Below, one piece after another: positions 983 to 31,429 of a stretch of DNA of 64,000 nucleotides. The notes below the pieces were generated by a model. That model made no database searches. It saw only the letters and a program-made list of their open reading frames with translations, and was not told the origin of the DNA. Source of the DNA: a virus (lineage: Duplodnaviria > Heunggongvirae > Uroviricota > Caudoviricetes); IMG/VR virus record IMGVR_UViG_3300042486_001111. One strand, given 5' to 3'. Numbering within the stretch: position 1 is the first letter of the stretch; the number at the start of each line of letters is the position of its first letter. The position numbers and the translations under genes are program-made.

Positions 983-1279
983 TTATTTACAAAAAGAACC
1001 CTGTATAGATGCCCACCAAGTATCTGACTCATCAACCTCAGAGTCACCCGTCATACCGTCACTATCCAGTTCTTTTCTTATCTCAACGGCAGAATCTCTC
1101 CACATTTTTAAAGGTTGTTCTATCAACCCCCATGCCTTAGGATTCTCTTTTATACTACCTAAGTATTTTTTTAAAATTTTAATACCCTCCTCATAAGTGT
1201 CGACAGTCATTATATTACAAATACCAAGTTCTTTTCTTTCAATTTCTTCTTTTAATATCTTTCTAATTATGTTTTTCAT
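983..1279 (-). CDS. leader family B protein (N-term MKNIIRKILKEE...)
   Basis: N-terminus matches the 'MKNxIRxILKEE' leader shared by 3138..3398, 15983.., 17156.., 18013.., 24549.., 26428.., 30398... Confidence 0.6.
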   Translation of the reverse strand: MKNIIRKILKEEIERKELGICNIMTVDTYEEGIKILKKYLGSIKENPKAWGLIEQPLKMWRDSAVEIRKELDSDGMTGDSEVDESDTWWASIQGSFCK

Positions 1280-1505
1280 ATATTATAAATATTATTTTTT
1301 ATGTAAAATTTGTATGATTGAATTATTTTTTATACATTTGACTTAAAATAGATAATTATGAATATGATTGTTTTTAGAAATCTTAATAGTACAGATAGAA
1401 TGGTGACTAAATTTTTAGTATTACCTACTAAGATTGGTGGTGTTTGGAAATGGTTACAGGTTGTAACCTTTAGAGAAGATTTTGTTAATAATAAATGGAT
1501 AATAA

Positions 1506-1796
1506 TTGAGTAATATGAAATTAAGTGATTTATGTGAAATTAAAACTAATTTTCCTGAAGCGGATTTTTGGTTGGTTAGAAAGGGTAGTGAAGATAGTGT
1601 AGGTTATCCTGTGAAAGATTTTAATCCAGAACATATTGGTATTAAAGTGACTGCGACTGATATACTTCTACCAGAATACCTTTACTACGTTATGTTGAAC
1701 CTATTTAATCAAGGAGTGTTTAAAAACAACTCTTATGGTACATTGAATTTAAAGAACATACGGGTTGAGGATGTTAGGGGAATTCGTCTAAGATAA
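1506..1796 (+). CDS. hypothetical protein (96 aa), plus-strand island
   Basis: Plus-strand ORF after a 225-bp intergenic region and followed by a hairpin terminator. Confidence 0.4.
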   Translation: MSNMKLSDLCEIKTNFPEADFWLVRKGSEDSVGYPVKDFNPEHIGIKVTATDILLPEYLYYVMLNLFNQGVFKNNSYGTLNLKNIRVEDVRGIRLR

Positions 1797-1834
1797 AAAA
1801 ACCCACTATGGTAGCGAACCTAGTGGGTTTAAAA
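1794..1834. terminator. bidirectional intrinsic terminator (A-run, cccacta/tagtggg hairpin, T-run)
   Basis: The motif aaaaaacccactatggtagcgaacctagtgggttt is seen directly. Confidence 0.55.
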
Positions 1835-1939
1835 TTGTCCGTAGACAATAACGGTCCTAATCCGTTTCTCTTTAAATTTTATTATAAATATTTTGTTTTT
1901 ATAAAATTTTTTATTAAATTTGTTTAAAATTATAAAGTT

Positions 1940-2413
1940 ATGAAAAAGTTAGTTTTTATTTTAGTAGTCTTAGTTACTAATAGTTTATATTCTCAGATTA
2001 ATTTTGATACACTATTTGTAATCAATGTTGAATCATCGGTAGATAGTAGGAGTAATCTATATCTTCTGAAAATCGATAATGGTTTAGAATACACCTCAAA
2101 CGTTAAACATAATGTTGGTGATATCTTTGGTTATTATGATCCTATTGCCAACAATTTTATCCCTAAATGGGTATATGAAAATAGTTTATTTGGTAGACTT
2201 TATTTTTCTGAACATCTGTGGACATATGATAGTAAACCTGTTATTGTTGTGTCTATAAACACTAAAACCAATAGTGAATATAAATACGAAATAGTAACAG
2301 ATACTAATATTACTTATTACTGTAACTACCCACCAAATGTAGGGGATGTAGTATTCCACACCAATAATTCAGGAGAACTAATTAACGTTGTTAAACCGTT
2401 TAAACTAAGGTAA
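1940..2413 (+). CDS. secreted/exported protein with N-terminal signal peptide (MKKLVFILVVLVTNSLYSQ)
   Basis: Hydrophobic signal-like N-terminus; convergent with the next minus-strand gene at zero spacing. Confidence 0.5.
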   Translation: MKKLVFILVVLVTNSLYSQINFDTLFVINVESSVDSRSNLYLLKIDNGLEYTSNVKHNVGDIFGYYDPIANNFIPKWVYENSLFGRLYFSEHLWTYDSKPVIVVSINTKTNSEYKYEIVTDTNITYYCNYPPNVGDVVFHTNNSGELINVVKPFKLR

Positions 2414-3127
2414 CTATTTGTTAGTACTTAGTATATCATTTATTGGTTTATCGAATCCAATACCAATACCGTTATTTGATATTAATACACCACCATTACA
2501 AATTTTGTTAGATTTAGTAACTGGTCCTCCTTCTAAGAAAAATATATCTGTCGCTAAAACATCATCACCTAATTTGTCATACTTGGCGTTAACACCCACA
2601 CATCCTGCGTCACCACTATTACTCGAAACATTTAACCTTTTCCAAGACATTATATTTGGGTTACTTAATGGTTTTAACCATAATAAAATTTTACCGTTAG
2701 TCATTAAATCTCTCAGAGATTTATCTGGAAATTTTTTAATAGTCCCAGCCTGATCAAAAGTAGTCAACTCTTCTGTAGTTAAACTACTCTCAACATCGTC
2801 AATATAATCAACAGAATTAATTTCCTTTAAGTAGGTGATAGGTTGTCTAAAATCAATTGTAGCACCCTCCCAAGCACTTGACTTATCATCAAATGTTAAA
2901 ATATTACCAACACTATCATAAATTTCAAATTGTTTTTGTGGGTTAAACCCAAACTTTACTTTAATATCGCTAACATAATTAGGTAACTCACTATTTAGGG
3001 CGGATACCAATTCACCGTTTATTTTTCTAAGTAATGTAGTTATATCGACAACAGATTCGTTTTCACTTATAACTCTTTTAACTATTCTGTTAAGATCACT
3101 TTCAGTTAATCTAATAATTTTTTTCAT
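2414..3127 (-). CDS. leader family A protein (MKKIIRLTESDLNRIVKRVISE...)
   Basis: Start moved to the internal Met that begins the conserved family A leader. Confidence 0.6.
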   Translation of the reverse strand: MKKIIRLTESDLNRIVKRVISENESVVDITTLLRKINGELVSALNSELPNYVSDIKVKFGFNPQKQFEIYDSVGNILTFDDKSSAWEGATIDFRQPITYLKEINSVDYIDDVESSLTTEELTTFDQAGTIKKFPDKSLRDLMTNGKILLWLKPLSNPNIMSWKRLNVSSNSGDAGCVGVNAKYDKLGDDVLATDIFFLEGGPVTKSNKICNGGVLISNNGIGIGFDKPINDILSTNK

Positions 3128-3137
3128 AATTTTTATT

Positions 3138-3398
3138 TTAACAACCGTCAAATTTAACTCTATTTTTAACTCTAAGAACTTCTCCTGGACTTATGCTATC
3201 ATTTCTCTTACCATTTAAAGCCTTAATATCGTCTAAAGTGATTCCGAAAGCCAATGCAATTTTTAACATTTGATCCCCACTGTTAACTTTATAACAACCA
3301 GTTTTATTCCCTCTTTTTATTTCTTCTGCGTTTGGGTGTTTTTCACCAGATGTCTCTTCGACTTCTTCTTTTAATATTCTTCTAATTAAATTTTTCAT
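3138..3398 (-). CDS. leader family B protein with C-terminal LysM domain
   Basis: N-term MKNLIRRILKEEVEE; C-term CYKVNSGDQMLKIALAFGITLDDIKALNG...PGEVLRV matches the LysM consensus. Confidence 0.65.
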   Translation of the reverse strand: MKNLIRRILKEEVEETSGEKHPNAEEIKRGNKTGCYKVNSGDQMLKIALAFGITLDDIKALNGKRNDSISPGEVLRVKNRVKFDGC

Positions 3399-3401
3399 AT
3401 C

Positions 3402-4262
3402 TTATCTTCTTCTTCTTACTTTAAATGGATTTCCACCTGACTTACTTTGGTACCTATCAAAAATTCTTCTAGACGTTTCTTCGTCACTAGTATTTAAATC
3501 CCATTTATTTTTCCCATCTCTTCCATATTTACTTTTTCTGAATGAATCAAAATCTTCAAACTCATCCTCATCAAAGTCATCATAATCTAATTTACCTGAT
3601 CTATTATTTCTATCCACTTTATATTCATCATCGAATGTACCGTAGTATTCATCGTCATCGTTTACATCCTTATCACTAACTCTGTAATATTTATTCACTC
3701 TTTCTTTTTCTTCAGGTGATAAGTTACCAAAATTTAAATCACCTAAAACTGGATGTCCATCGTCCATACCACCTAATTCACTTAACATAGTTTCATTAGT
3801 TCTTTTTCTATGTACATTAGATATCAATGTATTACCAATTACTCCACCACCTAATGCAGTACCTAAAGCCATTTGTAATACGTCTTCCGCAGAAATACCA
3901 CCTGCCATTGCAATACCACTAACTAAACCAACTAAACTAGTTAAACCTACTGTTGACATTTTTCTCTTCCAATACTCACCTTTACTTATTTTTTTTGGTT
4001 GCGCATCAGTATAATCGGAATATTCATAATCTTCATTCATTGAGTCTAAGTTATCTGATAATTCAGATGCAATTTCTGGATTATTCTGAAATATTGTTAC
4101 TAATTTTTGGAAATCTGGATTATTTTCTATTGACATTCCACTAAAGTCAGTTTCATTGCCTAGTTCTTCAGATGATGATACCCATTCCTCTTCACTTTCT
4201 CTTATTACTCTTTTTACAATTCTATGTAAGTCTGATTCTTTTAATTTTACAATTTTTTTCAT
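3402..4262 (-). CDS. leader family A protein with central Gly-rich hydrophobic segment and acidic C-terminus
   Basis: N-term MKKIVKLKESDLHRIVKRVIRE; glycine-zipper-like stretch GLVSGIAMAGGI...ALGGGVIG. Confidence 0.6.
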   Translation of the reverse strand: MKKIVKLKESDLHRIVKRVIRESEEEWVSSSEELGNETDFSGMSIENNPDFQKLVTIFQNNPEIASELSDNLDSMNEDYEYSDYTDAQPKKISKGEYWKRKMSTVGLTSLVGLVSGIAMAGGISAEDVLQMALGTALGGGVIGNTLISNVHRKRTNETMLSELGGMDDGHPVLGDLNFGNLSPEEKERVNKYYRVSDKDVNDDDEYYGTFDDEYKVDRNNRSGKLDYDDFDEDEFEDFDSFRKSKYGRDGKNKWDLNTSDEETSRRIFDRYQSKSGGNPFKVRRRR

Positions 4263-4315
4263 ATCAATTATTTTATTTATAAATATATTATGACTCTAAA
4301 AAGTTTTATCTTTTA

Positions 4316-5005
4316 TTATTGATCATACTTTAATTTTATCTCATCTAATAAAATATCCTTTAATTTTAGAATATATTTTCGGAAAACTATTTCTGACTCA
4401 TTCCAGTCTAAACCATAATTATCGTAAAAATAGTTGAATTCTTTATCATTAATTTCTGCAGAAGTCCAATCCTCTATCTCGTAATCAGGATATTTTCCAC
4501 TACCGTCATACATTGGGAATTCTATAATTACATTAATTTCTCTATAATTGGGGCTAAACCCTAATGTGGTACGTTTGATATCGTATTTAGTATCCTTTAA
4601 TAGAAAATCAACTACTTTATCTAAATATATATCTATTTTTTTATCACTACTTTCAGTTATATCCGTTTTTTCTGTTGTATCCACAAAACCGTTTGCATCT
4701 TCGTACCCTAATTTATGTCCCCTATCATTAAGTATCATCTCAACCCAGTCACCATCCCATCCTTCATAATATACCATTACACTTCCTACATTAGGGAAAA
4801 TTTTTCTAACAGTAAAGAAAAAGTATTGGTTTGGTGTAACTATTCCATCTGCGTAGTCAGTCTCAATTTCTGTAGTAGTAACATCACCATATATTTTTTT
4901 AAATATTGCGTCCCAATACTTCTGAGGTACCGCCAAACTCAATAAATCAGAAACATATGGTTTCTTTATTACCTTAGATATTTTATCTATTAATGATTTA
5001 TCCAC
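4316..5005 (-). CDS. hypothetical protein carrying the 'KKPYVSDLLSL..P..W' module
   Basis: Has one copy of the PPY-x-x-DL-x-SLG-x-P-x-x-EW module also present in 12172.., 26428.. and 41044... Confidence 0.5.
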   Translation of the reverse strand: MDKSLIDKISKVIKKPYVSDLLSLAVPQKYWDAIFKKIYGDVTTTEIETDYADGIVTPNQYFFFTVRKIFPNVGSVMVYYEGWDGDWVEMILNDRGHKLGYEDANGFVDTTEKTDITESSDKKIDIYLDKVVDFLLKDTKYDIKRTTLGFSPNYREINVIIEFPMYDGSGKYPDYEIEDWTSAEINDKEFNYFYDNYGLDWNESEIVFRKYILKLKDILLDEIKLKYDQ

Positions 5006-6834: not shown

Positions 6835-7488
6835 TTATTCGTAAAATGTTACGAAGTATTCTATAATACCTCCAGAAGAGTATCTCACAGGCATCACTTT
6901 CTTATCGTAACCAGGCATATTCTCATATTTTCCGATAACCTCTTCCTTACCAGCCTCACCACCATTCCATCTTCCTCTTCTTTCTAGTTTATAACTTTTA
7001 TCAGATGATTCTAAAGGAACACCAATAGTGAATTCGTTACCCGACTTTTCATAATCTATATTATTTATGTCTGGTTTTAATTTCTTTCCTTTAAGGTACT
7101 TGTTTATTTCATATGTTAAAACATTACATAACTGATGTATTGAATCACCAGTACCACCACCATTTTCACACTTACCGTGTTTTATTAAATACCCTGTGGT
7201 TGGTCCATCGTATGATACTGAAAAATAACTATCACTCTTAGATATAACAATTTTAGGTCTACCATTGGTTCCATTGAAATAAGATTCTCCACCACAATCT
7301 GCCCAACAGTTACAACTAGTACAACAACTTGGTTTAGCGGATTCAGATTCCTCACCTTCAACTGGTTCTTCTGTATCACCTTCATATGTTTCGATATCGT
7401 CAACTAAATTACCGAACATTCTCTCTTCAGTAAAAAGAGATTTCATCCTTTCGATAGTTTCGTTTAAATTTTTATTAATTCTTCCCAT
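6835..7488 (-). CDS. Cys-rich protein with family C-like N-terminus (..NLNETIERMKSLFTEE)
   Basis: N-terminal resemblance to family C; cluster CCTSCNCWADCGG. Confidence 0.5.
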   Translation of the reverse strand: MGRINKNLNETIERMKSLFTEERMFGNLVDDIETYEGDTEEPVEGEESESAKPSCCTSCNCWADCGGESYFNGTNGRPKIVISKSDSYFSVSYDGPTTGYLIKHGKCENGGGTGDSIHQLCNVLTYEINKYLKGKKLKPDINNIDYEKSGNEFTIGVPLESSDKSYKLERRGRWNGGEAGKEEVIGKYENMPGYDKKVMPVRYSSGGIIEYFVTFYE

Positions 7489-7577: not shown

Positions 7578-8180
7578 TTAACGGTAAACAGGATCCTTAA
7601 CACCAAATTCATATTTAAGAATAGAATCAATTTCATTTAGATAGTCACCCCATAAGTATTCAGATTCCTTTCTGGTTAAACCATAAGTGTTCTTACAATA
7701 ATCAATAAAAAATCCTGGATTAAAATGTCTGATTCTATTATACCGAAAATCTGAAAATGGTACCGATATCATAACGTCACCATAAGACGAATCATCCATT
7801 ATAGAAGTATCCGCCACCAAATACCTAAGAACCTTATCCATATAGTTAGAAACTTTCTCACCAAATATATCGTGATAGATATTCTCATTTATCGTATTAT
7901 CATATAATTTATTAGATATAATATTTTCGTAAGAACTGTATAAGTAATCAATCTCTTTATTATCTTTTATACCATAGGTATATTCTACATAAGATTTAAA
8001 AGATGGCATCCTACTACCTACCGCATTATTACCAAACCAACGTTTTGTAAGATAACCATCCATAACAGGAAAAGGTGTGATTACTATATCATCACCCTCA
8101 CCTTTATCGTATGTAATGGTACTATCCTTAACCAAACGACTAACGATTTTATTTAATAATATATACCTACCTTCGTCCAT
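7578..8180 (-). CDS. single-module member of the DKVVDFLVKDT / YGLT..E..YVW repeat family
   Basis: Contains NKIVSRLVKDSTITYD...PFP... and YGLTRKESEYLWGDY, matching the repeat unit of 9352..11235. Confidence 0.55.
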   Translation of the reverse strand: MDEGRYILLNKIVSRLVKDSTITYDKGEGDDIVITPFPVMDGYLTKRWFGNNAVGSRMPSFKSYVEYTYGIKDNKEIDYLYSSYENIISNKLYDNTINENIYHDIFGEKVSNYMDKVLRYLVADTSIMDDSSYGDVMISVPFSDFRYNRIRHFNPGFFIDYCKNTYGLTRKESEYLWGDYLNEIDSILKYEFGVKDPVYR

Positions 8181-8186: not shown

Positions 8187-8672
8187 TTACATCGATTTAG
8201 CCAACTTATCACTCACATCCAAAAAGAAGTGTGTTAATCCATCTTCCAAATCCTCATTTAAATTTACATAGTCATTACCATCATGTAAATCGAAATGCAT
8301 AAAGTTATAATCTGCGTCAGTATATATCTCAGCGTAATAATCTATTTCATCATCACCGTTCATAAAATTAAATATACCTATGTGTTTATATTCCTTAGGA
8401 TTGTCATCCCACTCCTCTGTGGACTCATAGGTGAACTTAACAGGTACTTCATCCACCTCACCAGAGAACTCGTAACCTGAGTCCATACTAAGTAAATTTT
8501 CGATATGTGGATCAACCTTACCCTTAGACATATTGTTTAAGAACATTCTTTCGTTGTCCGTTAACGAATCCATACCGTAATCATTAATCTTATCGAGAAT
8601 CTTATTTAGTAGTTCCTCATTCTCATTAATGAATAAATGTTTAACCTGATTTTCTGTTACAATTATTTTCAT
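8187..8672 (-). CDS. leader family D-like protein (MKIIVTENQVKHLF...)
   Basis: N-terminus resembles the MKIKLTETQYNRLL leaders. Confidence 0.5.
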   Translation of the reverse strand: MKIIVTENQVKHLFINENEELLNKILDKINDYGMDSLTDNERMFLNNMSKGKVDPHIENLLSMDSGYEFSGEVDEVPVKFTYESTEEWDDNPKEYKHIGIFNFMNGDDEIDYYAEIYTDADYNFMHFDLHDGNDYVNLNEDLEDGLTHFFLDVSDKLAKSM

Positions 8673-8684: not shown

Positions 8685-9167
8685 TTATTGTCTATTCATA
8701 TATTCCCCACTATAATATTTTTTGTATGCGTGTGGATTTCTTCTAATATGAACTTTACCTGTCTCAGGATTTCTTAATTTATCAAAATCTCTTCTAGTTC
8801 TTAACGGTTTAAAATTATCATTAGGTATTTCACTTCTTTTTAATTCTGTGAAATCATCAAACTCATAATCTTCCCATTCTCCAGAATACTTTGGGTCATT
8901 GTGAAATGACCAATGTCCTCGATTTGTCATATACCTACCATATGGGTTTGAACTTAACGGATCATACCAAGAGTATGTACTATCCCATCCTTCAGGATCC
9001 CATCTATCTCTGACAGGTTTGGGTTCGTACTTAAAATCTGGAAAAGGTAGATCTTTTTCAAGCCAAGGTCTATTCTGATTTTTTTGAGTAAAGTCATCAG
9101 ATTCGTTAATAACTCTTCTAACGATTCTTTGTAAATCTGATTCAGTTATTCTTACAATTTTTTTCAT
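8685..9167 (-). CDS. leader family A protein (MKKIVRITESDLQRIVRRVINE...)
   Basis: Start set at the internal Met (ATG at 9165-9167) that begins the conserved leader. The longer ORF (to 9281) would run through the terminator at 9200-9226. Confidence 0.6.
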   Translation of the reverse strand: MKKIVRITESDLQRIVRRVINESDDFTQKNQNRPWLEKDLPFPDFKYEPKPVRDRWDPEGWDSTYSWYDPLSSNPYGRYMTNRGHWSFHNDPKYSGEWEDYEFDDFTELKRSEIPNDNFKPLRTRRDFDKLRNPETGKVHIRRNPHAYKKYYSGEYMNRQ

Positions 9168-9199
9168 AATTATATTTTTATTTATAAATATTACGAAAA

Positions 9200-11235: not shown

Positions 11236-11542
11236 ACTTTGATATTAATAAAGTTGCCAATTTTATTCCGTACATATCCATAACTCTACGACACTCATCT
11301 TCTGTTAACCCATAATATCCCACAAGGTATTTAATGTCATCGGTACCGATTAACCATCCACTATGTAACCACTCCTTTAGTTCATCTTCCGTATAATAAA
11401 ATTCTAATTCCTCAATACCATACATTGGAAAATTCACACCTATGTGATCTCTGTTGGAAGGTTTTGTCCAGTGTTTGGTTCTCTTAACTAAATCGTCAAC
11501 AACATAATTGAAATATCTTCCTAATTTATCCTCCATATACAT
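11222..11542 (-). CDS. single-module member of the same repeat family (YVVDDLVKRTK...YGLTEDECRRVMDMY)
   Basis: Shares the module; overlaps the upstream gene by 14 nt. Confidence 0.5.
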   Translation of the reverse strand: MYMEDKLGRYFNYVVDDLVKRTKHWTKPSNRDHIGVNFPMYGIEELEFYYTEDELKEWLHSGWLIGTDDIKYLVGYYGLTEDECRRVMDMYGIKLATLLISKYGEQ

Positions 11543-15982: not shown

Positions 15983-16447
15983 TTATCGTCTTTGGAAGTC
16001 TTTCTTTTTTCTAATGGTATTAAATATTTCGTATATAACACCATCATCAAATTCCTTTGATTCATTTATATAATTGGCAACCTCTTCATTATAACCGTAA
16101 TGTCCCCTCTCATATTCTGTTACCTCAATCTCTAGTAAATTACCATCACTGATTACTTTATCTATAACTTTTAAACCTGTCAAATATAAATTAATATCTA
16201 CATATAATTCACCTTCCTCACCATAATAATCTTTTGTACCTTCATCCATTATGAAATCTATGATGTATCGTTCTATTATATCTCTCGGTAGTTCACCTAT
16301 TTTAAGTAATATATTTGTAAGTGACATTTGTGTTGTCTCCATAAAATAATACAACCCAAACTTTTTTATTCTAGATAAAAATAAATTCTTATCAACCCCA
16401 TCGGATTCCTCCTTCAATATTCTTTTTATATTTTCTTTTAGGTTCAT
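15983..16447 (-). CDS. leader family B protein (MNLKENIKRILKEE...)
   Basis: Conserved leader. Confidence 0.6.
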   Translation of the reverse strand: MNLKENIKRILKEESDGVDKNLFLSRIKKFGLYYFMETTQMSLTNILLKIGELPRDIIERYIIDFIMDEGTKDYYGEEGELYVDINLYLTGLKVIDKVISDGNLLEIEVTEYERGHYGYNEEVANYINESKEFDDGVIYEIFNTIRKKKDFQRR

Positions 16448-16457
16448 ATTCTTTTAA

Positions 16458-16826
16458 TTACACATCTTTAATCTCATCACCAATAACATCTAATGTTTCT
16501 TTGTTTGTTGCGTTTTTTATCACCTTTGGTGCAACTCCTTCATCATACGCCTCTTTCCATCTTTTTGCACATAAACACCATCTATCCCCACTTTTTAACA
16601 TAGATAAATCATTTCCTTTTGACTTTGTAAACTCAAGAAATCGATCATCAACTTCACTACAAACTGTGTGTGTTCCTTTATCAGAACTACCTGTCTTACA
16701 ATATCCATCTCTGTAATATCCTGTCATTGGGCTTTCTCCACATATTTGTAATGGTTCGTCTAATATATTCATATCAGATATGTCCATCATTTCTATAATT
16801 CTATGTATTTGTTCTTGTAGATTCAT
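16458..16826 (-). CDS. leader family C protein (MNLQEQIHRIIEMM...), Cys-rich
   Basis: Conserved leader; five Cys residues spread over the C-terminal half (Cys-rich). Confidence 0.6.
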   Translation of the reverse strand: MNLQEQIHRIIEMMDISDMNILDEPLQICGESPMTGYYRDGYCKTGSSDKGTHTVCSEVDDRFLEFTKSKGNDLSMLKSGDRWCLCAKRWKEAYDEGVAPKVIKNATNKETLDVIGDEIKDV

Positions 16827-16827
16827 A

Positions 16828-17154
16828 TTATGACATACTTCTAATTATTTGATTATACTTGTGAACCCCTAATCCTTTTTGTATTCCGTCCCAATTTTCT
16901 TTCCACCCTATTAATTTTTCTTCAGGTAATTCTTCCCATTCATACCATGCATTTGTATTTTCAGGTGTAACAATTGATATTAAATCAGGGTTCCATTCAC
17001 CACCTGTTTGAGTACCTTCAGGTGTATGAACTATTTTAAATGAATTACCATAGTTTTCATCCCAATCAATATATAATCTTTCTATATAATCATTTGATTC
17101 GGTTATTAAACCCATCATAGATTTTATTCTATGTATTTGTTTTTGTAGATTCAT
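16828..17154 (-). CDS. leader family C protein (MNLQKQIHRIKSMMGLITES...)
   Basis: Start set at the conserved leader Met; 1-nt gap to the upstream gene. Confidence 0.55.
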   Translation of the reverse strand: MNLQKQIHRIKSMMGLITESNDYIERLYIDWDENYGNSFKIVHTPEGTQTGGEWNPDLISIVTPENTNAWYEWEELPEEKLIGWKENWDGIQKGLGVHKYNQIIRSMS

Positions 17155-17155
17155 A

Positions 17156-17572
17156 TTACCAAATACTTTTACCACTTCCTTTATAAATTAATTTTATACA
17201 GTTAGACGGTATATTCTCAAATGTTACTATGTGATGTTCGTAATCACCCCCTTCAAAATGTGTATCCCTATACCAAGTAACTCCCGCACATTCTGTATCT
17301 ATTAACCATATATCATCATCGTAACCATCATCAAACATATCTTCTTTATTTAGAGAATCTGTAGCAAAAATTGATGGTTGACATTCCACATCACCACCTA
17401 CATAACTTTGATAACATTCTCCCACCGATGTTTGTAAACCAGTAAGTTTTATATTATCTCTCCACACAGGATTTGACTGGTGAACAACGAACTTATTAGG
17501 TGTCATTTCAGTACCTTTAGGTGAGTATAGTTCTTCCTTTATTATTCTTCTTATTTGTTCTTGTAGTTTCAT
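17156..17572 (-). CDS. leader family B protein (MKLQEQIRRIIKEE...)
   Basis: Start set at the conserved leader Met. Confidence 0.55.
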   Translation of the reverse strand: MKLQEQIRRIIKEELYSPKGTEMTPNKFVVHQSNPVWRDNIKLTGLQTSVGECYQSYVGGDVECQPSIFATDSLNKEDMFDDGYDDDIWLIDTECAGVTWYRDTHFEGGDYEHHIVTFENIPSNCIKLIYKGSGKSIW

Positions 17573-17573
17573 A

Positions 17574-18011
17574 TTAATTATAAAATTCAACATTAAGTTT
17601 TGTATCACCCCACAAAGGATTATTAGAATCTAAATGGTTCTGTAATAAATATAATGCCGATAATCTATGTGCCCCATCTTGTAGTGTTCCATTAACTATT
17701 ATTATTGGGGGAAGATTGTATATTGATTCAGGGTTCTTTTTTAAGTAATCTGCATATTCCATAACCTTTTTTGTTACACCCCAATCATATTCTTTGTTTT
17801 GAACATCCTGTAAAACTTCTTTGTAGTATGGAATATAATCTAACATCTCAATTAATTCATTTAATGTAAGTTGTTCCGTATATTTGTCCATACTTTCTTT
17901 TTCTTCGTCTGAAATTGGTTTACCACTTGACATACCAAGTTGTGGAATGTTTTCAGATATAACTCCCATCATTGATTGTATCCTTGATATTTGTTCTTGT
18001 AGATTTTTCAT
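17574..18011 (-). CDS. leader family C protein with possible ParB-like nuclease motif (LQDGAHRLSALYLL)
   Basis: MKNLQEQISRIQSMMGVISE leader; a DG.HR motif suggests a ParB/sulfiredoxin-like fold (weak). Confidence 0.5.
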   Translation of the reverse strand: MKNLQEQISRIQSMMGVISENIPQLGMSSGKPISDEEKESMDKYTEQLTLNELIEMLDYIPYYKEVLQDVQNKEYDWGVTKKVMEYADYLKKNPESIYNLPPIIIVNGTLQDGAHRLSALYLLQNHLDSNNPLWGDTKLNVEFYN

Positions 18012-18012
18012 A

Positions 18013-18636
18013 TTATATTAGTTTATAACCTGATTTTATCTTCCACATATTTTTTTCTGGTACTTCTGTTGGTGGGATGTAATCTTCATCTGGACCCAAT
18101 CTTACTGCCAAACCTTTACTAACTAAATCTTCCCACATATTAAAACCATCATACTGACCTGTTTGTGTATTATATAAAAATATAAAGTCAGATGTGAACA
18201 TATCAAAGTTCTCAAAATTATCTTTTAACCATTGGTTGAAATCAATATAGAATTTTCTCATTATACCTTTACCTCTATACTTAGGATAGATATCTACTTT
18301 TTGTATTTGTAGTGAAAATAAACCTGTCATACTATCTTTATAAACAAAGGCAACAAATCTACCAACCTTATCATTTGTAGTATTATCAATAATATCTATT
18401 ATAATTTGGTTTGATGCATCAGTACCTCTACTATAACGAAGTGAAAAGTCATCAAAAGATACTACTGTTTGTATTTTTTTTAAGAAGTTGTGTAGTTCTT
18501 CCCCTTTAACAAATCTACTTATAGATGATAATAGTTTACCGTATATACTACTCTCATCTTTCATTTCTTCAGATTTAACTTCTTCAGTTAAAAGTTCTTC
18601 CCTTAATATTCTTTTTATGTTTTCCTGTAAATTCAT
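18013..18636 (-). CDS. leader family B protein with possible GNAT acetyltransferase fold
   Basis: MNLQENIKRILREE leader; IYPKYRGKGIMRKF resembles GNAT motif A. Confidence 0.5.
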   Translation of the reverse strand: MNLQENIKRILREELLTEEVKSEEMKDESSIYGKLLSSISRFVKGEELHNFLKKIQTVVSFDDFSLRYSRGTDASNQIIIDIIDNTTNDKVGRFVAFVYKDSMTGLFSLQIQKVDIYPKYRGKGIMRKFYIDFNQWLKDNFENFDMFTSDFIFLYNTQTGQYDGFNMWEDLVSKGLAVRLGPDEDYIPPTEVPEKNMWKIKSGYKLI

Positions 18637-19298
18637 TATGTAAGTTTAAATATAACCTCATCAACTAATTCGTCTGTTGATTTACTTTCCCCATTTTCAT
18701 TACGTGGATTGATGGTTGTTTTACCTTTATAAAATTCCCTAATACTATTAATAGATTGTTGTATTTCTTCATCATTCGTATCATCCTCCAATTCAGGTTG
18801 ACCCATTTCTTTTGCCCTTTTGATTCTCCTATCTTTTATAAATTGAATATATGGTCCATCATCTTCAGGTGTTGTTGGTAATCCGAAAACAAATAGATTT
18901 GGTAAATCTTCTAATAAGTCAGGATTTTTTATACTGTCCCCACCTATATCAAAAATTACTTTTTCATTACCATATTTATCTAATAGTTTAGTAAGAACAC
19001 ATCTTTTATATTCATCATTCGATTCACCGTAATTATGACCATCTTCAGTTCTTGTAATATTAACTTCCACACCAGGTTCATCCTTACACAAATTTTCATA
19101 TTCTTCACTACCTTCCATTTTATCCACATCAATACGTGATATACCCAATTTTTTAGATAAGGCTTCTGCGGTGGTAGATTTACCACTACCTGCAGTTCCA
19201 ATAAAGACAATTGGTTTATTTTCATAAGACTTCTGTTCTTCTGTAAGAAGTCCCATCATTTGTTTCATCCTATTAACTTCTTCGTTTAAATTTTTCAT
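18636..19298 (-). CDS. leader family C protein, P-loop nucleotide kinase-like
   Basis: MKNLNEEVNRMKQMMGLLTEE leader; Walker A IVFIGTAGSGKST. Confidence 0.6.
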   Translation of the reverse strand: MKNLNEEVNRMKQMMGLLTEEQKSYENKPIVFIGTAGSGKSTTAEALSKKLGISRIDVDKMEGSEEYENLCKDEPGVEVNITRTEDGHNYGESNDEYKRCVLTKLLDKYGNEKVIFDIGGDSIKNPDLLEDLPNLFVFGLPTTPEDDGPYIQFIKDRRIKRAKEMGQPELEDDTNDEEIQQSINSIREFYKGKTTINPRNENGESKSTDELVDEVIFKLT

Positions 19299-19361: not shown

Positions 19362-19799
19362 TTACTTCAATGGTGGAAGATTGTCATATTCATCCTGAGC
19401 ATTACCAAAATCAATTGCCCCTTGTATTAATCTGGTTATTCCATTATAGTCATTAGTTGATAATACCATACTGTTTGTTCCTTTAACTTCTTCTAAATAG
19501 TTAATACTTTTTCCCATTGGGAATTTAAGGAAAATAGCAAGTGATACTTTAGATGGGTCGTTCACTGATTTTGTTGCAACCATCACTTTAAATCCCCTTT
19601 TTGGAAGGGAATAAATTTCCATACCATCAATGTTTTTAACATAATTAAACCCATGTTTTACCGTAAATAAATCACTTAATAATTTATTATTGATTTGACT
19701 AAAATCGGAAGATTGTTCACCACCTTCTTCGTTTTCTCGAATAACCCTTCTAACGATTCTATTTAAATCTGATTCCGTAAGTTTTATAATTCTTTTCAT
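19362..19799 (-). CDS. leader family A protein (MKRIIKLTESDLNRIVRRVIRE...)
   Basis: Conserved leader. Confidence 0.6.
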   Translation of the reverse strand: MKRIIKLTESDLNRIVRRVIRENEEGGEQSSDFSQINNKLLSDLFTVKHGFNYVKNIDGMEIYSLPKRGFKVMVATKSVNDPSKVSLAIFLKFPMGKSINYLEEVKGTNSMVLSTNDYNGITRLIQGAIDFGNAQDEYDNLPPLK

Positions 19800-20020
19800 A
19801 ATAATATTTTATTATAAATATATTATATATACAAAAAATCCCCACTTATGAGGTGAGGATTTATCTTTTTCCGTAATAATCGAAATAGTCTTTTCTGTCT
19901 TTAAGTACCGTTACTATCAGAAACGTTATACTTAGTATACTTAATATAATCATATCGTATATATACTAAGATAAACTATATTGTGTAACCTTTGTATATT
20001 ATGAAATTGTTATGATATAA

Positions 20021-20335
20021 TCACCAAAAGGTAATTATATTATCACTACTAGTTTGTCTCCATTGACCTTTACCTGTGGGTTTTTTAAGTTTATCCGATT
20101 CAGGATATTCATTATTATCATATGTTGCCAACATTTTACCTTTACTAGAATTTGGAAGCATCTCATAAAAGGTTAATTTGGTATCATCTTTTTCCCAAAG
20201 TCCTACACCATATCCTGGGTTCCATTTTGATGGTGCGGGTATTTTCATCACCCACTGATTGGGGTCACCTTCATTGATAACTCGTTTAACAATATTAACC
20301 AAATCTGATTCTCTAAGTTTAACTATTCTTTTCAT
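20021..20335 (-). CDS. leader family A protein (MKRIVKLRESDLVNIVKRVINE...)
   Basis: Conserved leader. Confidence 0.6.
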   Translation of the reverse strand: MKRIVKLRESDLVNIVKRVINEGDPNQWVMKIPAPSKWNPGYGVGLWEKDDTKLTFYEMLPNSSKGKMLATYDNNEYPESDKLKKPTGKGQWRQTSSDNIITFW

Positions 20336-20386
20336 ATCTAATATTTTATTATAAATATATGTTAAAAAGAAAAAACCCCTATATTC

Positions 20387-24548: not shown

Positions 24549-25013
24549 TTAATATTCGTACAGTTGTTTTAACTTACTTAATGTTTTGCCAACATTATCG
24601 GAACTGTGTTTAATACCTATACCATCATTACCAACCCATGAGTCTATGTTGGTTTGACTATCATCAATTAGTATTGAATTTTCATTTCCATATTTTATAC
24701 CTTTGTCTTTACCTGATGTGACAAATACAATTGGCGGTATTGGGTTTAAGTAATCTTTAACTTGTTGTCTTTTGGTTTTTTTCGCACCATCAATATCTTT
24801 AGTACCAGTGGATGATAAGATAGTTGGGTTATATTTTTTAATACCTTCCCACAATTCACTCCCAATGTAATCAGTTTCATCTCCTGATCCACCTTCATCT
24901 GCACCCATTTTTTTAAATAAAACACCACCCATATCAACATATAGCGTATATGATTTATTTTTTTGTTCGGTTTCTTCCCTTAATATTCTTCTTATAGATT
25001 CGTGTAGTCTCAT
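24549..25013 (-). CDS. leader family B protein with NT5C/HAD-like fold (5'(3')-deoxyribonucleotidase-like, DxD changed to DxG)
   Basis: MRLHESIRRILREE leader; LYVDMGGVLF versus HAD motif I DMDGVL; C-terminal ILIDDS matches HAD motif IV. Confidence 0.45.
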   Translation of the reverse strand: MRLHESIRRILREETEQKNKSYTLYVDMGGVLFKKMGADEGGSGDETDYIGSELWEGIKKYNPTILSSTGTKDIDGAKKTKRQQVKDYLNPIPPIVFVTSGKDKGIKYGNENSILIDDSQTNIDSWVGNDGIGIKHSSDNVGKTLSKLKQLYEY

Positions 25014-25018: not shown

Positions 25019-26431
25019 TTAAGCCATATTAGTCGTGTCATTTTTATTAATATCATCACTACCCTTTTCCTTAATTTCATTTTGTGCCAAATCATTAAGT
25101 TCTTTTAAAAACACAGTAAGTTTTGGTGTCATACCACCTATTACCCAACAAGCAATCAAACGTTCAAAATCAAGTGATGGTTCATTATTGTTTATTGTTG
25201 CCTGTATATGAGTCGAAAGTATACTTAGTGGAATATCCTCACCAAGTTTTATCATATTATTGTCAGTTAAATAACTTCTATATCCTGCTAAGTTTGATAG
25301 TTTTTCATTCCAATCACAATTGTATCCACTTTTCCAGTCATCACCAGTAAAATGTTTTTTTAACTTTTCTACATCAATACCTTTAGACTGTAATTCTTTT
25401 TTGGTGTCAGCAGGAATTGATTCAGTTTGTGATAAATTTTTAATATTTACATCATCTTTTCCTTCTAGTTCACCATAATAATCATATGCTGAAGGTAACG
25501 CTTGTTGTATAGTTATTGTCGAATTAAGTTTTCGAACTTTTCTCCATAGTATGTGTTGTATTTCATGAACAAAAGTGTCTTCTGTTTTTTGAGCGACTTT
25601 ACCTATACCACTTTTTTTATACATTCTAAAATATGATTCCATATTAACACATACTGTGTATTCAGGACAATTACCATTAACATACATATTTGCATTTATT
25701 TCTTCCGCCTGTTTAGTATAATCAGTCCACCCTTTTTTTTCTATTTTATCTAATGCAGATAAATAATCATCAATTACATCACTACCAAGAGTAGTTAAAT
25801 AATCCCACATTTCCATGTTAGATCTTATCTTTTTTTGTACTGCTGGAGTTTTCAAATACGATCTCCAATATTTTAGTGCATATTTAAAACTACCATCTAA
25901 TGTTTTAGGTATTATTACTTTTTTTGCTTCAATATCTTCTTTAGGTAATAATTTAAATGACATATCAAATACCGTTTGAGCATCAACCTCACAAGTCTTA
26001 GCCAACTTAGTACATGTTATAACAATCATTGCCCCAACCGCCTTTAACATTTTTGGTCCATATCCAGTAGTTTCACCCACATCATACCCTTGTTTTTTTA
26101 GTTGTAACCACAATTTATTTACAGTATCTATACCTGATTTTGTGCCGTATCTCCAATAACCTAAAGCCTTCGCAGTTTGATTACCGAAATCCCAATCTTT
26201 AGAAATATTCCAACCAATTGCAATTAAAAAATCTTGTACACCACCAGCACCTTCATATGGGTTAGGAACTCTTTCATCACTAAAGAATTTTTTTTCTGCA
26301 ATTTGTTTATAATACCAACATCTTTTACCTGCACTAACCCCTTCAACAAGTAATTGACTTTCACTAATAACCCTCTTTACTATTCTATGTAAATCAGATT
26401 CAGTTAATTTAATTATTTTTTTCCCATTCAT
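25019..26431 (-). CDS. leader family A protein (470 aa) with HExxH zinc-metallopeptidase motif and putative peptidoglycan-binding-like region
   Basis: MNGKKIIKLTESDLHRIVKRVISE leader; TFVHEIQHILW; the N-terminal region resembles PG-binding repeats (weak). Confidence 0.55.
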   Translation of the reverse strand: MNGKKIIKLTESDLHRIVKRVISESQLLVEGVSAGKRCWYYKQIAEKKFFSDERVPNPYEGAGGVQDFLIAIGWNISKDWDFGNQTAKALGYWRYGTKSGIDTVNKLWLQLKKQGYDVGETTGYGPKMLKAVGAMIVITCTKLAKTCEVDAQTVFDMSFKLLPKEDIEAKKVIIPKTLDGSFKYALKYWRSYLKTPAVQKKIRSNMEMWDYLTTLGSDVIDDYLSALDKIEKKGWTDYTKQAEEINANMYVNGNCPEYTVCVNMESYFRMYKKSGIGKVAQKTEDTFVHEIQHILWRKVRKLNSTITIQQALPSAYDYYGELEGKDDVNIKNLSQTESIPADTKKELQSKGIDVEKLKKHFTGDDWKSGYNCDWNEKLSNLAGYRSYLTDNNMIKLGEDIPLSILSTHIQATINNNEPSLDFERLIACWVIGGMTPKLTVFLKELNDLAQNEIKEKGSDDINKNDTTNMA

Positions 26432-26817
26432 AATCTCACATTACTTAAATCTATTGGTTTAACTTCTTCATCATAATAATCGTCACCATCAAAACCATAT
26501 TTTTTTATTGCACTATCTTGTTCATTTCTTTCTACAACTTCCCAACCACGACCATCAAACTCCTCAAAATAAATCCATTGTCCACCCATTTTAGGGTGAA
26601 CAAACACATCACCACCCGTGTCAATTCCATAGATTTTTAACTCCATACCAAATATAACTTCAAGTACTTTTAAAATCTCCTTATTGGTTAAACCCATTGT
26701 ATCCATATCTGTAACATATGGTGGTTTTACTATAGAAGCAATTTTTTTATAGAGTTTATCTTCCGCATCTTCTTTTAGTATTTTTTTAACTATATTTTTT
26801 ATGAGTAATCTATTCAT
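26428..26817 (-). CDS. leader family B protein with PPY..D.D..G module
   Basis: N-term MNRLLIKNIVKKILKEDAED (carries the family B IVKKILKE core); module KKIASIVKPPYVTDMDTMGLTNKEILKVLEVIFG. Confidence 0.55.
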   Translation of the reverse strand: MNRLLIKNIVKKILKEDAEDKLYKKIASIVKPPYVTDMDTMGLTNKEILKVLEVIFGMELKIYGIDTGGDVFVHPKMGGQWIYFEEFDGRGWEVVERNEQDSAIKKYGFDGDDYYDEEVKPIDLSNVRL

Positions 26818-26818: not shown

Positions 26819-27490
26819 TTAACTACACTTTCCCCAAGAGAAACTTCTAACTCTACATCCCTTTTTTGAAGTGATGTTTATATTTAATGCACATAATATA
26901 GTTTTAAGTAACCATATACCAATCAGTGTAACTAACACTGCACTCGCAATAGTTAACACCAATGCAGGCATTGTAAAGGAACCAAATATTGTTACCAACG
27001 CCATACTGGTACCAAAGAATTCTTTAAGTACTTCTTCCCCTTCAGTTTCTTTCTCCGCCTCAGATTTTTTAGATTTAATATTTTTATAAAGTTTTTTAAG
27101 ATCACCACTACTTAATGTATTAAGGAAATCTACGAACTTATCCAAATATTCTTTGATAGTCTTAAGTGCTTCTTCCGCACCGTCTTTGAATTTCTCTCTA
27201 ACAACCTGTCCGAATTTTTTATCTACATATGCGCCCATATCAGAAAATTGACATATCTCAGTATTGTCTATGGAATCAACCATACTTTGTTCATCTTGAA
27301 CAGTTACACCAATCTCATTCATAATTTCCTCACCACCATCAGACTTTAGTTCATCCATAAATGATTTCATGTTATCATCATCGATATCATATTCTCTAAG
27401 TAAAGTTTTCTGTTCACTTTTAGTTACACCCATTTCATATTCGAAAAGGTATTTAATTTTGTCAATTTGTTGTTCTATATTACGTTTCAT
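26819..27490 (-). CDS. family C-like protein with C-terminal transmembrane segments
   Basis: Start set at MKRNIEQQIDKIKYLFEYEMGVT; hydrophobic C-terminal TM stretch (MALVTIFGSFTMPALVLTIASAVLVTLIGIWLL). Confidence 0.5.
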   Translation of the reverse strand: MKRNIEQQIDKIKYLFEYEMGVTKSEQKTLLREYDIDDDNMKSFMDELKSDGGEEIMNEIGVTVQDEQSMVDSIDNTEICQFSDMGAYVDKKFGQVVREKFKDGAEEALKTIKEYLDKFVDFLNTLSSGDLKKLYKNIKSKKSEAEKETEGEEVLKEFFGTSMALVTIFGSFTMPALVLTIASAVLVTLIGIWLLKTILCALNINITSKKGCRVRSFSWGKCS

Positions 27491-29023: not shown

Positions 29024-29025
29024 TA

Positions 29026-29506: not shown

Positions 29507-29512
29507 ACGACA

Positions 29513-29541
29513 AATATAGAGATTATATTTAACAATGTCAA
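29513..29541 (-). promoter_or_regulatory. sigma70-like promoter TTGACAttgt-17-TATATT, 6 nt before ATG
   Basis: Minus strand reads TTTGACATTGTTAAATATAATCTCTATATTTGTCGTATG. Confidence 0.5.
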
Positions 29542-29542
29542 A

Positions 29543-29570
29543 TAAAAAAACCCACTTTTGGTGGGTTTTT
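29543..29570. terminator. bidirectional intrinsic terminator (cccac-tttt-gtggg + T5)
   Basis: aaaaaaacccacttttggtgggttttt. Confidence 0.55.
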
Positions 29571-29575
29571 CGTAT

Positions 29576-30394
29576 TTATTTTTTCTTTGATTTTTCATTC
29601 TCCTCAACAAATTCTTCAGGTATCTTAGTGTCCTTTAAAAATTTATTATGTGATGCCTTATAAGATTTTTGTGTTTCATCATCAGCATTTTGTGTATATT
29701 GCCAATTCCAATATAAGTCTTCATTCACTTTAAAACCATAATAATGGTGAACACCCTTTTGTGTTTCAATTACATTTGCACCATTCCAATTCTGTCCAAC
29801 ACATATATACCCAGACTCAATGTCTTTAATAAGATTTGATTCACCTAACGTAGTATGTCTATTTTGAATCCAAGTTAATCTTTCGATTAGATTTTGGTAG
29901 TACATATTTGTTTGTCCCCATCTAACAGATGAAAAGAATACAACTGCGTCAGACTCAAACAATTCCTTACTGATTTTCCAAAGTTCATCAGACGGTTCGT
30001 TAATATTGACCCAACATCTGTGATGTCCTGATGGGTTTTTTGTTTTATCTTTAAGTAATGCCTTTAATAATCCACAAGAGTTACCTTCTGATCTGGAAAC
30101 ATTACCTTCACAAGGTAATATTTTTAATTCCGTAACATCAATAAAAGTTGCCTTATCCCCTAATTCTTCCTGTATGTACATTGCCAACAATTTAGATTTA
30201 GGTATATCAATATTTTTAGGATCAAACTGATATCTATTAGAACAAGATAGTATTAAAACCTTATCTTTTTCTTTTAAAACCTCAATAGTCTTCTTTAATT
30301 TTTTAAAGGTGTCACTCATACCGAATTTTTCCGATTCAGTAATCACACCCATGATAGATTTAATACGACTTATTTCTTCATTTAAGTTACCCAT
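29576..30394 (-). CDS. leader family C protein with flavodoxin-like/NADPH-dependent FMN reductase-like fold (tentative)
   Basis: MGNLNEEISRIKSIMGVITESE leader; KVLILSCSNR...AVVFFSSVRW pattern resembles a flavoprotein fold. Confidence 0.45.
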   Translation of the reverse strand: MGNLNEEISRIKSIMGVITESEKFGMSDTFKKLKKTIEVLKEKDKVLILSCSNRYQFDPKNIDIPKSKLLAMYIQEELGDKATFIDVTELKILPCEGNVSRSEGNSCGLLKALLKDKTKNPSGHHRCWVNINEPSDELWKISKELFESDAVVFFSSVRWGQTNMYYQNLIERLTWIQNRHTTLGESNLIKDIESGYICVGQNWNGANVIETQKGVHHYYGFKVNEDLYWNWQYTQNADDETQKSYKASHNKFLKDTKIPEEFVEENEKSKKK

Positions 30395-30397
30395 ACA

Positions 30398-30928
30398 TTA
30401 ACTATATATTATATCACTTAGTTTAGACTTAGACGCCTTTATTATTTCACCTTGCCCATTCGGTCTCAATTGACTCATTTGTTTGGCGGTTGACATTGAG
30501 TATCTATTTTCATTTTCAAACCATTGCCCATCCTTAAATACAAATATTGGGTACCAATTATATGAATATACTACATACGTCTTACCAACGTATTCTGCAT
30601 GTGTATTACTACCTTTAAACGGTATTTTACTAGAAACTAAATCTCTAGCACTACTATTTGCAGATTTAATTTTTTTAGTGGTATTAACGGTTCTATTCAA
30701 ATCACCATATTCGATGTCACTTTTAAAATTGTTAAGGAATAGTTGGTACATCTCAAATGCTTCCATACCACTTAAGGTGAAATTACTATTTAAAAATTTT
30801 ATAACTTTAACGTAATCCGTAGAAGGGACAAAACCTTCTTTTTTAAGGGTGCTGATAATATATCTATCAAACTTATCTTTCTTATTGTCAACAGTTTCCT
30901 TTAATATTTTTTTAATTGTATTTTTCAT
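30398..30928 (-). CDS. leader family B protein (MKNTIKKILKETVDN...)
   Basis: Conserved leader. Confidence 0.55.
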   Translation of the reverse strand: MKNTIKKILKETVDNKKDKFDRYIISTLKKEGFVPSTDYVKVIKFLNSNFTLSGMEAFEMYQLFLNNFKSDIEYGDLNRTVNTTKKIKSANSSARDLVSSKIPFKGSNTHAEYVGKTYVVYSYNWYPIFVFKDGQWFENENRYSMSTAKQMSQLRPNGQGEIIKASKSKLSDIIYS

Positions 30929-30943
30929 AACTTTTATGCTATA

Positions 30944-31429
30944 TTAACCACCCCATTCATTTTTACAGTAATTTTTTAATCCGTCTGTTCTACCTATTTT
31001 AATTACCGCACCTGACTGTTCTTTACTATAAACCTTATTAGATTCCCATTTTTTTACTAAATCATTTTTCTCATCTTTAGTCAATTTAATTTCATCATAT
31101 AAACTAATAGCATTTACTGGTTCGGCAACCACATTACCTTTCACTCTTTGGACTAATTTTTTTATACCCTGAGCAAAATCTCCACCACCCATATAAAATG
31201 GTTTTTCAACCTTAACACACCCTAATCTATTTTTATTATCTTTTAACCAACCACCAGAAACTTTTATTACGGTATCACCATAAACCATAAAATTTTTATC
31301 ACCTTCATCTTCATTGTCAGTAACATTTTCAGTTTCTTCAGTATCTGTTTCAACATCAGATTTAACTTCAGAGGACTCAAATAACATTAACTTTTTGATT
31401 CTGTCTATTTCTTCATTTAAATTTTCCAT
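30944..31429 (-). CDS. leader family C protein (MENLNEEIDRIKKLMLFESSE...)
   Basis: Conserved leader. Confidence 0.55.
   Translation of the reverse strand: MENLNEEIDRIKKLMLFESSEVKSDVETDTEETENVTDNEDEGDKNFMVYGDTVIKVSGGWLKDNKNRLGCVKVEKPFYMGGGDFAQGIKKLVQRVKGNVVAEPVNAISLYDEIKLTKDEKNDLVKKWESNKVYSKEQSGAVIKIGRTDGLKNYCKNEWGG

Follow-up and report, generated by a model that had tools for sequence, protein, structure and literature searches.

Why would a virus begin a large share of its genes with nearly the same short peptide? The question is raised by IMG/VR record IMGVR_UViG_3300042486_001111 (Caudoviricetes), of which we analysed a stretch of 64,000 nucleotides, referred to throughout as the window, that has 28-33% GC for most of its length and contains some 111 genes, of which 98 are encoded by the minus strand. 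Twenty-nine of these genes (about 26%) begin, exactly at the N-terminus, with one of four related leader peptides, which are helical, about 13-22 residues long and near-identical within a class. Eight genes carry a class A leader (one of them partial), eight class B, eight class C (two of them weak) and five class D; 23 lie inside positions 983-31429, the span given for them in a first-pass annotation of the sequence, and six elsewhere in the window. The "more than 30" tagged genes counted in that annotation are slightly too many for the window and hold for the genome, since we found at least six clear further leader genes to the left of the window and then two weaker candidates farther out. 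When the window was scanned in six frames with regular expressions and hidden Markov models (HMMs), the reported motifs were found solely at the starts of minus-strand open reading frames (ORFs), and across 470 leader ORFs from related DNA the leader methionine follows the preceding in-frame stop by a median of five codons. The tagged genes are packed most tightly at 15983-19298, where the class order is C-B-C-B-C-C-B; at five junctions the genes overlap by 1 base or are separated by no more than one, and the departures from the alternation of B and C at 0-1 nt spacing described earlier are the adjacent C-C pair and one gap of 10 nt.

To define the leaders, we built a class A consensus from 183 non-redundant in-register copies, M-K-K-[IV]-[IV]-[RK]-L-T-E-S-D-L-x-R-I-V-K-R-V-I-x-E, in which information content is high over positions 1-22, with Ile20 conserved at 79% and Glu22 at 98%. 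Past Glu22, conservation is lost: over about three residues, most of them acidic or polar, it drops to background. The pattern is that of a basic amphipathic helix with a net charge of about +4, in which E9, D11 and E22 are the invariant acidic residues. Class B (M-N-L-Q-E-x-I-R-R-I-L-K-E-E) ends in ILKE|E and class C (M-N-L-Q-E-Q-I-x-R-I-K-S-M-M-G-L-I-T-E) in G[LV][IL][TS]E, class D reads M-K-I-I-I-T-E-S-Q-Y-x-R-L, and relatives of the phage have a fifth class, E, with the core …I-T-E-E-E-K-x-R-I-L-x-L-H…. Classes B and C have their first ten residues in common (MNLQE.I.RI), B resembles the second (C-terminal) half of A and D the first (N-terminal) half, so that the four distinct families originally proposed are instead a single continuum on an [LI]-x-E … φ-x-R-[IL] plan. 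The statement that every leader contains an [LIV]-x-E motif held up: one is present in each class, and in A, B and C conservation stops at one.

We then asked at which level the leaders are conserved. Codon entropy at the majority of their conserved residues is near the genome-wide value (Leu7 is written TTA, CTT or CTA, and Ser10 with six codons) and the identical DNA runs common to the window's leaders are short. Because synonymous codons are spread about as widely as in genome-wide usage, selection acts on the peptide and not on the DNA, and the earlier suggestion that shared 5' ends provide homology for cassette shuffling is not supported at these nearly genome-wide levels of synonymous variation. 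The same data bear on the idea that the leader is an RNA- or DNA-level 5' signal, either a recombination site or a translation-initiation element, perhaps one read by ribosomes carrying a phage-encoded copy of the ribosomal protein bS21. The phage does encode bS21, its predicted hosts do not use Shine-Dalgarno sequences, leader codon 2 is invariably AAA and cassette content varies by strain; nevertheless, with codon usage near the genome-wide pattern, only short runs of identical DNA and conservation in register with an amphipathic helix, we regard this explanation as largely refuted and very improbable.

If the peptide is what is selected, it could be either a module in its own right or part of a fold. 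In about 2.4 Mb of related contigs we found 470 tagged ORFs, and the 465 with usable bodies fell into 246 clusters without detectable mutual similarity, 145 of which include class A proteins. Recognizable domains have their first residue just past the leader, at position 20 for DUF2237 (from profile position 2), 36 for LysM, 30 for the P-loop and 18 for DUF6576. Furthermore, orthologues of the body encoded at 46686-47117 carry, phage by phage, leader A in full or in truncated form or else leader B, with indels of up to 34 residues in the linker between leader and body. Together, the unrelated body clusters, the domains beginning downstream and the exchange of leaders on one body support the proposal that the leaders are a separable module, and the domain diversity over 246 clusters rules out the alternative that the leader is the first helix of one common fold. 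Some metagenome proteins carry two to three leader copies, the extra ones internal. Among them are P0132-P0137, P0150, P0156, P0200 and P0245, which have two to three copies of leader A, the internal ones often without a methionine; these proteins resemble either natural polyproteins or the products of tagged genes fused in frame.

The bodies themselves are varied. Of the folds first suggested for them, LysM and a P-loop NTPase/kinase-like motif were recovered, and sequence searches additionally gave DUF2237, DUF6576 and a weak PG_binding_1 match, while the flavoprotein, NT5C, ParB and HExxH peptidase assignments found no sequence support in Pfam or the PDB, and GNAT none in Pfam. PDB sequence searches with four tagged-protein bodies returned no match. 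Many bodies are of peptidoglycan-binding or -cutting types (LysM and PG_binding_1, with OmpA-like and lysozyme-like plus SH3 bodies seen by eye), others have hydrophobic segments, and none has a signal peptide. This composition raises the possibility that the leader directs its cargo to the periplasm or envelope of the Bacteroidetes cell during infection, either as an amphipathic helix that targets membranes or as an unconventional export signal, an idea favored by the lack of classical signal peptides on such bodies and by the basic, amphipathic nature of the helix. However, the leader lacks a hydrophobic core and has the acidic residues E9, D11 and E22, which are atypical of lipid-binding helices; it does not have the make-up of a Sec, Tat or lipoprotein signal, with a charged residue every two to three positions and copies at internal sites, and some bodies look cytoplasmic (DUF2237, P-loop NTPase/kinase-like). 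We consider export of this kind quite improbable.

To determine how widely the leader occurs, we searched with a class A HMM. It found 258 N-terminal instances in the 2.4 Mb of related DNA; when run against 1.84 billion proteins from public metagenomes, it matched 6,470 cluster representatives, and nearly all of the best matches listed lie at residues 1-25. These numbers indicate that the leader is not a product of chance. The class A profile also matched at least 397 places in IMG/VR, on contigs of up to 296 kb, and in 185,579 species genomes only three short contigs of metagenome-assembled genomes. Cultured phages gave no match for the window DNA, for one tagged protein or for the bare leader, the last being a weak negative with a short, low-complexity-filtered query. 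The leader peptides have no Pfam match (DUF6576 falls on the body, not on the leader), tagged proteins have no relevant family in PHROGs, and literature text searches found no description of the leader motif. On this evidence the tag is essentially confined to uncultured viral and metagenomic sequence. An exact-match search of IMG/VR with the window itself returned nothing, whereas proteins of the phage turned up in JGI freshwater samples and in ENA and Logan assemblies.

What kind of phage carries these leaders? The window encodes an extracytoplasmic function (ECF)-type sigma factor, five tRNAs, bS21 and ferritin, and we take the phage to be a relative of the "bS21 phages", which infect Bacteroidetes in freshwater and were published by Chen et al. 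2022, whose account does not mention the tags. By extending leftward from the window through overlapping public contigs, we obtained an identity chain in which the window corresponds to ENA contig L082 (99.9% nucleotide identity) and this in turn to IMG/VR contig 3300042562_002564 (99.9%), which carries a T4-type TerL and portal about 34 kb from the window. Protease, scaffold and major capsid protein (MCP) genes lie outside the window and were read on a 166-kb relative (88% identical) and in a sister clade. In the relative, Portal_T4 (E 2e-76) and Peptidase_S77 (E 9e-25) were detected; the S77 protease shares 34% identity with T4 gp21, to which it aligns at the His and Ser motifs, and is accompanied by an acidic scaffold of 477 aa and an MCP 58% identical to a Gp23-family MCP. 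The scaffold has a conserved helix at its N-terminus (residues 6-46), and for this clade the closest cultured MCP is 41% identical. The sister clade, with at least 570 MCP relatives in IMG/VR on contigs of up to 321 kb, has the same head module. The prohead protease and T4-like capsid protein that had been suggested as things to look for are therefore present in the lineage, together with the portal and the acidic scaffold. In the sister clade, leader genes directly adjoin the baseplate, protease, scaffold and MCP genes or stand in line with them, the window's leader genes at 46686 and 47140 are syntenic with the MCP there, and a single 296-kb contig (L049 and L133) holds both leader A and the MCP.

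Because the lineage combines an S77-family protease and an acidic scaffold with a basic tag that ends in [IVL]-x-E, a capsid-targeting reading is coherent. On these circumstantial grounds our preferred explanation, to which we give an even chance, is that the leaders are T4-like capsid-targeting propeptides, greatly expanded in number and length. On this reading, the basic amphipathic helix would dock each newly made protein onto the very acidic scaffolding core during assembly of a T4-type prohead, the gp21-family serine protease would then cleave after the invariant Glu of the terminal [IVL]-x-E, and the mature body, freed inside the head, would stay with the DNA and enter the Bacteroidetes host upon infection. 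Scaffold binding, cleavage, encapsidation, ejection and the roles of the cargo are all steps that we infer. Bodies that bind peptidoglycan or have membrane segments while lacking signal peptides would fit delivery to the envelope from the virion, and the internal leader copies suggest that the tag needs no free N-terminus, which would suit polyprotein processing.

The capsid-targeting reading draws on T4, in which a 10-residue capsid-targeting sequence (CTS) at the N-terminus brings internal proteins to the scaffolding core and is by itself enough for foreign proteins to be loaded, and in which gp21, whose cleavage motif is L/I-x-E, cuts the CTS off (PMC9026906, PMC8442874). A change of Glu to Asp blocks the cutting of the T4 CTS. 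Like the CTS (MKTYQEFIAE, in the internal proteins IPI-III), the leader is a short N-terminal peptide common to unrelated proteins that ends in an L/I-x-E-type motif; as in T4, the lineage has a gp20/gp21/gp22/gp23-type head module and the cargo genes occupy variable accessory regions. In contrast to the 10-residue CTS, of which there is one class, the leaders are 13-22 residues long, form at least five related classes, and are basic and amphipathic. T4 has a handful of such cargoes, whereas 29 candidate cargoes occur here in 64 kb and thousands clade-wide.

Several observations weigh against capsid targeting. The scale is without precedent, with about 26% of window genes tagged compared to the three internal proteins plus Alt of T4, and leader genes are far denser in the window island (37.5 per 100 kb) than near head genes (1.9-7.3 per 100 kb). 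Direct resemblance to the CTS does not reach significance: the leader start MKNLQEQISR scores 21, which is reached by 0.17% of background N-termini and is not significant over about 29 leaders, and the other leaders score at background level. [LIV]-x-E motifs are frequent across the window proteome (449 sites, about one per 40 residues), so that presence alone means little and the motif is informative only as a fixed site at the boundary of conservation; in class D, conservation extends beyond the I-T-E motif and this boundary is less clear. The protein encoded at 46686 in the window lineage has lost Glu22 (…KTMDQ…), and an AlphaFold2 model of a conserved tagged protein was of low confidence (predicted local distance difference test score, pLDDT, 55). 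A promoter-like intergenic motif, ATATTTAT[AT], precedes not only tagged genes and head genes (portal, protease) but also thioredoxin and other non-structural genes. Finally, the clade conserves a ClpC-like ATPase, which is an alternative candidate receptor for the leader.

The clustering of leader genes away from the head module also bears on another explanation, that the leader is an uncleaved docking helix for a hub other than the capsid, gathering proteins on a common partner or intracellular body. A strongly conserved amphipathic helix with invariant charges is typical of a specific protein-protein contact, the internal copies suggest that the leader functions at internal positions, and the genes are grouped in accessory islands rather than beside head genes. 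Set against this, we found no conserved candidate hub, and docking leaves unexplained why conservation stops exactly at the Glu of a protease-type motif. We judge a docking helix to be unlikely.

The ClpC-like ATPase suggests a further possibility, namely that the leader is a recognition tag for this phage AAA+ unfoldase, leading to timed unfolding, degradation by ClpP, or remodelling. The enzyme is a two-ring Clp ATPase (AAA_2, AAA_lid_9, ClpB_D2-small) that is conserved in the clade and has 424 relatives in IMG/VR. A G-V-G-F-G loop, seen by eye, sits at what we take to be the position of ClpP-docking loops and might dock ClpP. Among bS21 phages, a chaperone ATPase is one of the common families and some have Clp protease genes (Chen et al. 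2022). The destruction of a quarter of the accessory proteome is nonetheless hard to rationalize, peptidoglycan-binding bodies and bodies with membrane segments are a poor fit, and the link between tag and ATPase is one of co-occurrence only, in a clade that also always has the S77 protease. A role as an unfoldase tag is, in our estimation, improbable.

Two other known systems invite comparison with capsid targeting. In giant phages, dozens of internal proteins are processed by the prohead protease and ejected into the host (PMC10052503, PMC7411985). As with the inner-body proteins of these phages, for which the proteases are SPN3US gp245 and phiKZ gp175, we find dozens of candidate internal proteins and paralogous expansions. 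The propeptides of phiKZ and SPN3US are not known to be one sequence common to many unrelated proteins, and they are cleaved at a motif whose P3 residue is small (S/A/G-x-E). The leaders described here, by contrast, have I, L or V at P3 and are near-identical across cargoes, and so do not belong to the phiKZ/SPN3US type. Encapsulin cargo-loading peptides are similar in that a short conserved peptide steers diverse enzymes into an HK97-fold shell; they are usually C-terminal and stay on the cargo without proteolytic removal, and the shell they fill is that of a bacterial nanocompartment. We found no encapsulin gene here. At the level of intergenic DNA, separate from the peptide leader, the window resembles the PeSL (promoter-stem-loop) cassettes of T4-like hyperplastic regions (PMC4122927) in having many small accessory genes each flanked by a hairpin, a T-run and ATATTTAT[AT], although the motif differs from T4 promoters.

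A further motif was noticed in the window proteome, where [LIVFM]-N-E-S is 7.5-fold enriched (15 observed versus 2.0 expected, z 8.8), a count inflated by the shared ancestry of the repeats in which it occurs. It is found at repeat and domain junctions, including four of the five junctions of a six-repeat protein, and ALLNE|S occurs within the propeptide region of the capsid protein of the lineage. These motifs may be polyprotein sites for the prohead protease or a linker habit inherited by paralogous repeats. They would be processing sites under a broader and more tentative interpretation, which we think somewhat unlikely, in which the tags are not simple T4-style propeptides and form instead a multi-class protein "address code" (A-E) in a widespread clade of large Bacteroidetes phages. 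This code would sort much of the accessory proteome to different destinations or partners, for example capsid interior layers, the infected-cell envelope or translocation driven by ClpC, and polyproteins would be processed at the recurring [ILV]-N-E-S junctions.

The principle of capsid targeting is already known from the T4 CTS and from the processed ejection proteins of giant phages; what is new is the form, a tag of 22 residues that is near-invariant, comes in several classes and is carried by thousands of unrelated proteins of an uncultured clade. If the tags load capsids, members of this clade would inject dozens of different proteins per infection, far above any studied phage, the 6,470 or more tagged clusters would be a ready catalogue of candidate host-takeover or anti-defence effectors from abundant freshwater phages, the T4 capsid-targeting principle would be ancient and scalable, and a natural portable tag for protein delivery would be at hand. 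We put at about one in five the likelihood that they belong to a different sorting system altogether; if they do act otherwise, they would constitute a protein-sorting signal that text searches do not find described and that has no Pfam or PHROGs model.

Table 1. Leader genes of the window and other features discussed in the text. All leader genes are on the minus strand, and the higher coordinate of each is the first base of its ATG. Coordinates preceded by an L number refer to related contigs.
Feature	Coordinates (strand)	Length	Remarks
Class A-like leader gene, partial (off window edge)	1..229 (-)		MKKRIFRLTESQINRLGKRFLVES...; full protein 249 aa with PG_binding_1 (L083:10745-11494)
Class A leader gene	2414..3127 (-)	237 aa	MKKIIRLTESDLNRIVKRVISE; missing from sister strains L083/L084
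Class A leader gene	3402..4262 (-)	286 aa	Gly-rich hydrophobic segment and acidic tail
Class A leader gene	8685..9167 (-)	160 aa	leader end RVINE|SDD
Class A leader gene	19362..19799 (-)	145 aa	
Class A leader gene	20021..20335 (-)	104 aa	
Class A leader gene	25019..26431 (-)	470 aa	MNGKKIIKLTESDL...; weak PG_binding_1 match, HEIQH motif
Degenerate class A leader gene	46686..47117 (-)	143 aa	body YMFFSNLQQMRRQCD...GHDWAQDHI, kept across clade, adjacent to capsid gene in sister clade
Class B leader gene	983..1279 (-)	98 aa	MKNIIRKILKEE
Class B leader gene	3138..3398 (-)	86 aa	LysM body, E 2.2e-10, residues 36-78
Class B leader gene	15983..16447 (-)	154 aa	MNLKENIKRILKEE
Class B leader gene	17156..17572 (-)	138 aa	MKLQEQIRRIIKEE
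Class B leader gene	18013..18636 (-)	207 aa	MNLQENIKRILREE
Class B leader gene	24549..25013 (-)	154 aa	MRLHESIRRILREE
Class B-like leader gene	26428..26817 (-)	129 aa	…IVKKILKED; R2 'PPY..D…G' domain
Class B leader gene	30398..30928 (-)	176 aa	MKNTIKKILKET
Class C leader gene	16458..16826 (-)	122 aa	complete DUF2237 from residue 20, E 4.6e-40, profile positions 2-107/115
Class C leader gene	16828..17154 (-)	108 aa	MNLQKQIHRIKSMMGLITE
Class C leader gene	17574..18011 (-)	145 aa	MKNLQEQISRIQSMMGVISE; of all leaders, nearest to T4 CTS
Class C leader gene	18636..19298 (-)	220 aa	P-loop NTPase/kinase-like body from residue 30
Class C leader gene	29576..30394 (-)	272 aa	MGNLNEEISRIKSIMGVITE
Class C leader gene	30944..31429 (-)	161 aa	MENLNEEIDRIKKLMLFES
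Weaker class C leader gene	6835..7488 (-)	217 aa	MGRINKNLNETIERMKSLFTEE
Weak class C-like leader gene	26819..27490 (-)	~223 aa	MKRNIEQQIDKIKYLFEYEMG; hydrophobic segment C-terminal
Class D leader gene	8187..8672 (-)	161 aa	MKIIVTENQVKHL; DUF6576 body from residue 18
Class D leader gene	47140..48705 (-)	521 aa	conserved body, syntenic with capsid gene in sister clade
Class D leader gene	55138..55560 (-)	140 aa	MKIIITESQYKKVLLRE
Class D leader gene	55557..56129 (-)	190 aa	MKIKLTETQYNRLLTE
Class D leader gene	56132..56746 (-)	204 aa	MKIRLTENQYKRLLKE
S77 prohead protease of the lineage	L274:10001-10690		
ClpC/ClpB-like AAA+ ATPase	L171:9041-11551; L165:14605-16155; L064:13824-15875		
ATATTTAT[AT] examples	4278-4286; 9183-9191; 19813-19821; 20350-20358; 57458-57466		also in L248, upstream of portal and protease genes
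[LIVFM]-N-E-S loci	9352-11235 (-); 12172-13044 (-); 13314-14306 (-); 41044-43452 (+); 53888-54898 (-)		also L274:12265-14064
R1 loci	4316-5005; 7578-8180; 9352-11235; 11222-11542; 13314-14306		
R2 loci	12172-13044; 26428-26817; 41044-43452		

At about 25 gene starts in the window, a hairpin and T-run are followed by ATATTTAT[AT] 2-30 nt before the ATG, and the motif has 31 matches against 16.6±4.1 expected. We considered it as a mark of late co-expression and dropped the idea, since the motif also stands before non-structural genes. Strains differ at the level of whole cassettes: the window strain has the A-tagged gene 2414-3127 and a neighboring 157-aa gene with a signal-peptide-like start (1940-2413), both of which are missing in the near-identical L083 and L084, and the latter strains carry a PG_binding_1 plus GH19 gene elsewhere.

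The window also contains two more paralogous domain families without a Pfam match, R1 and R2. R1, which is limited to the close lineage of the window, spans about 105 aa with the motif 'YLDKVVDFLVKDT…YGLT..E..YVW' and occurs in six tandem copies in one protein; the motif of R2 is 'PPY..DL..LGIP'. Six-repeat R1 proteins, whose genes neighbor leader genes, were entertained as a receptor for the leader and rejected, given that R1 is restricted to this close lineage and the leaders are clade-wide. In a 240-aa protein encoded at 15080-15802(-), a series of 'NNKDKIKEY.KEY' repeats precedes an HNH-like C-terminus; many of the related contigs have homologues of it, and these often lie immediately downstream of the capsid gene.

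The bS21 (50691-50879, +) and ferritin (50881-51378, +) genes lie on the strand opposite to their neighbors, with bS21 about 85 kb away from the head genes and not among them. At the right end of the window, tRNA genes for Met, Arg, Leu, Glu and Asp form a cluster of five (62755-63426, -). In a close relative of the window phage, an HNH-type endonuclease gene interrupts the thymidylate synthase gene, which is thereby divided between two ORFs (L171:5531-7474).

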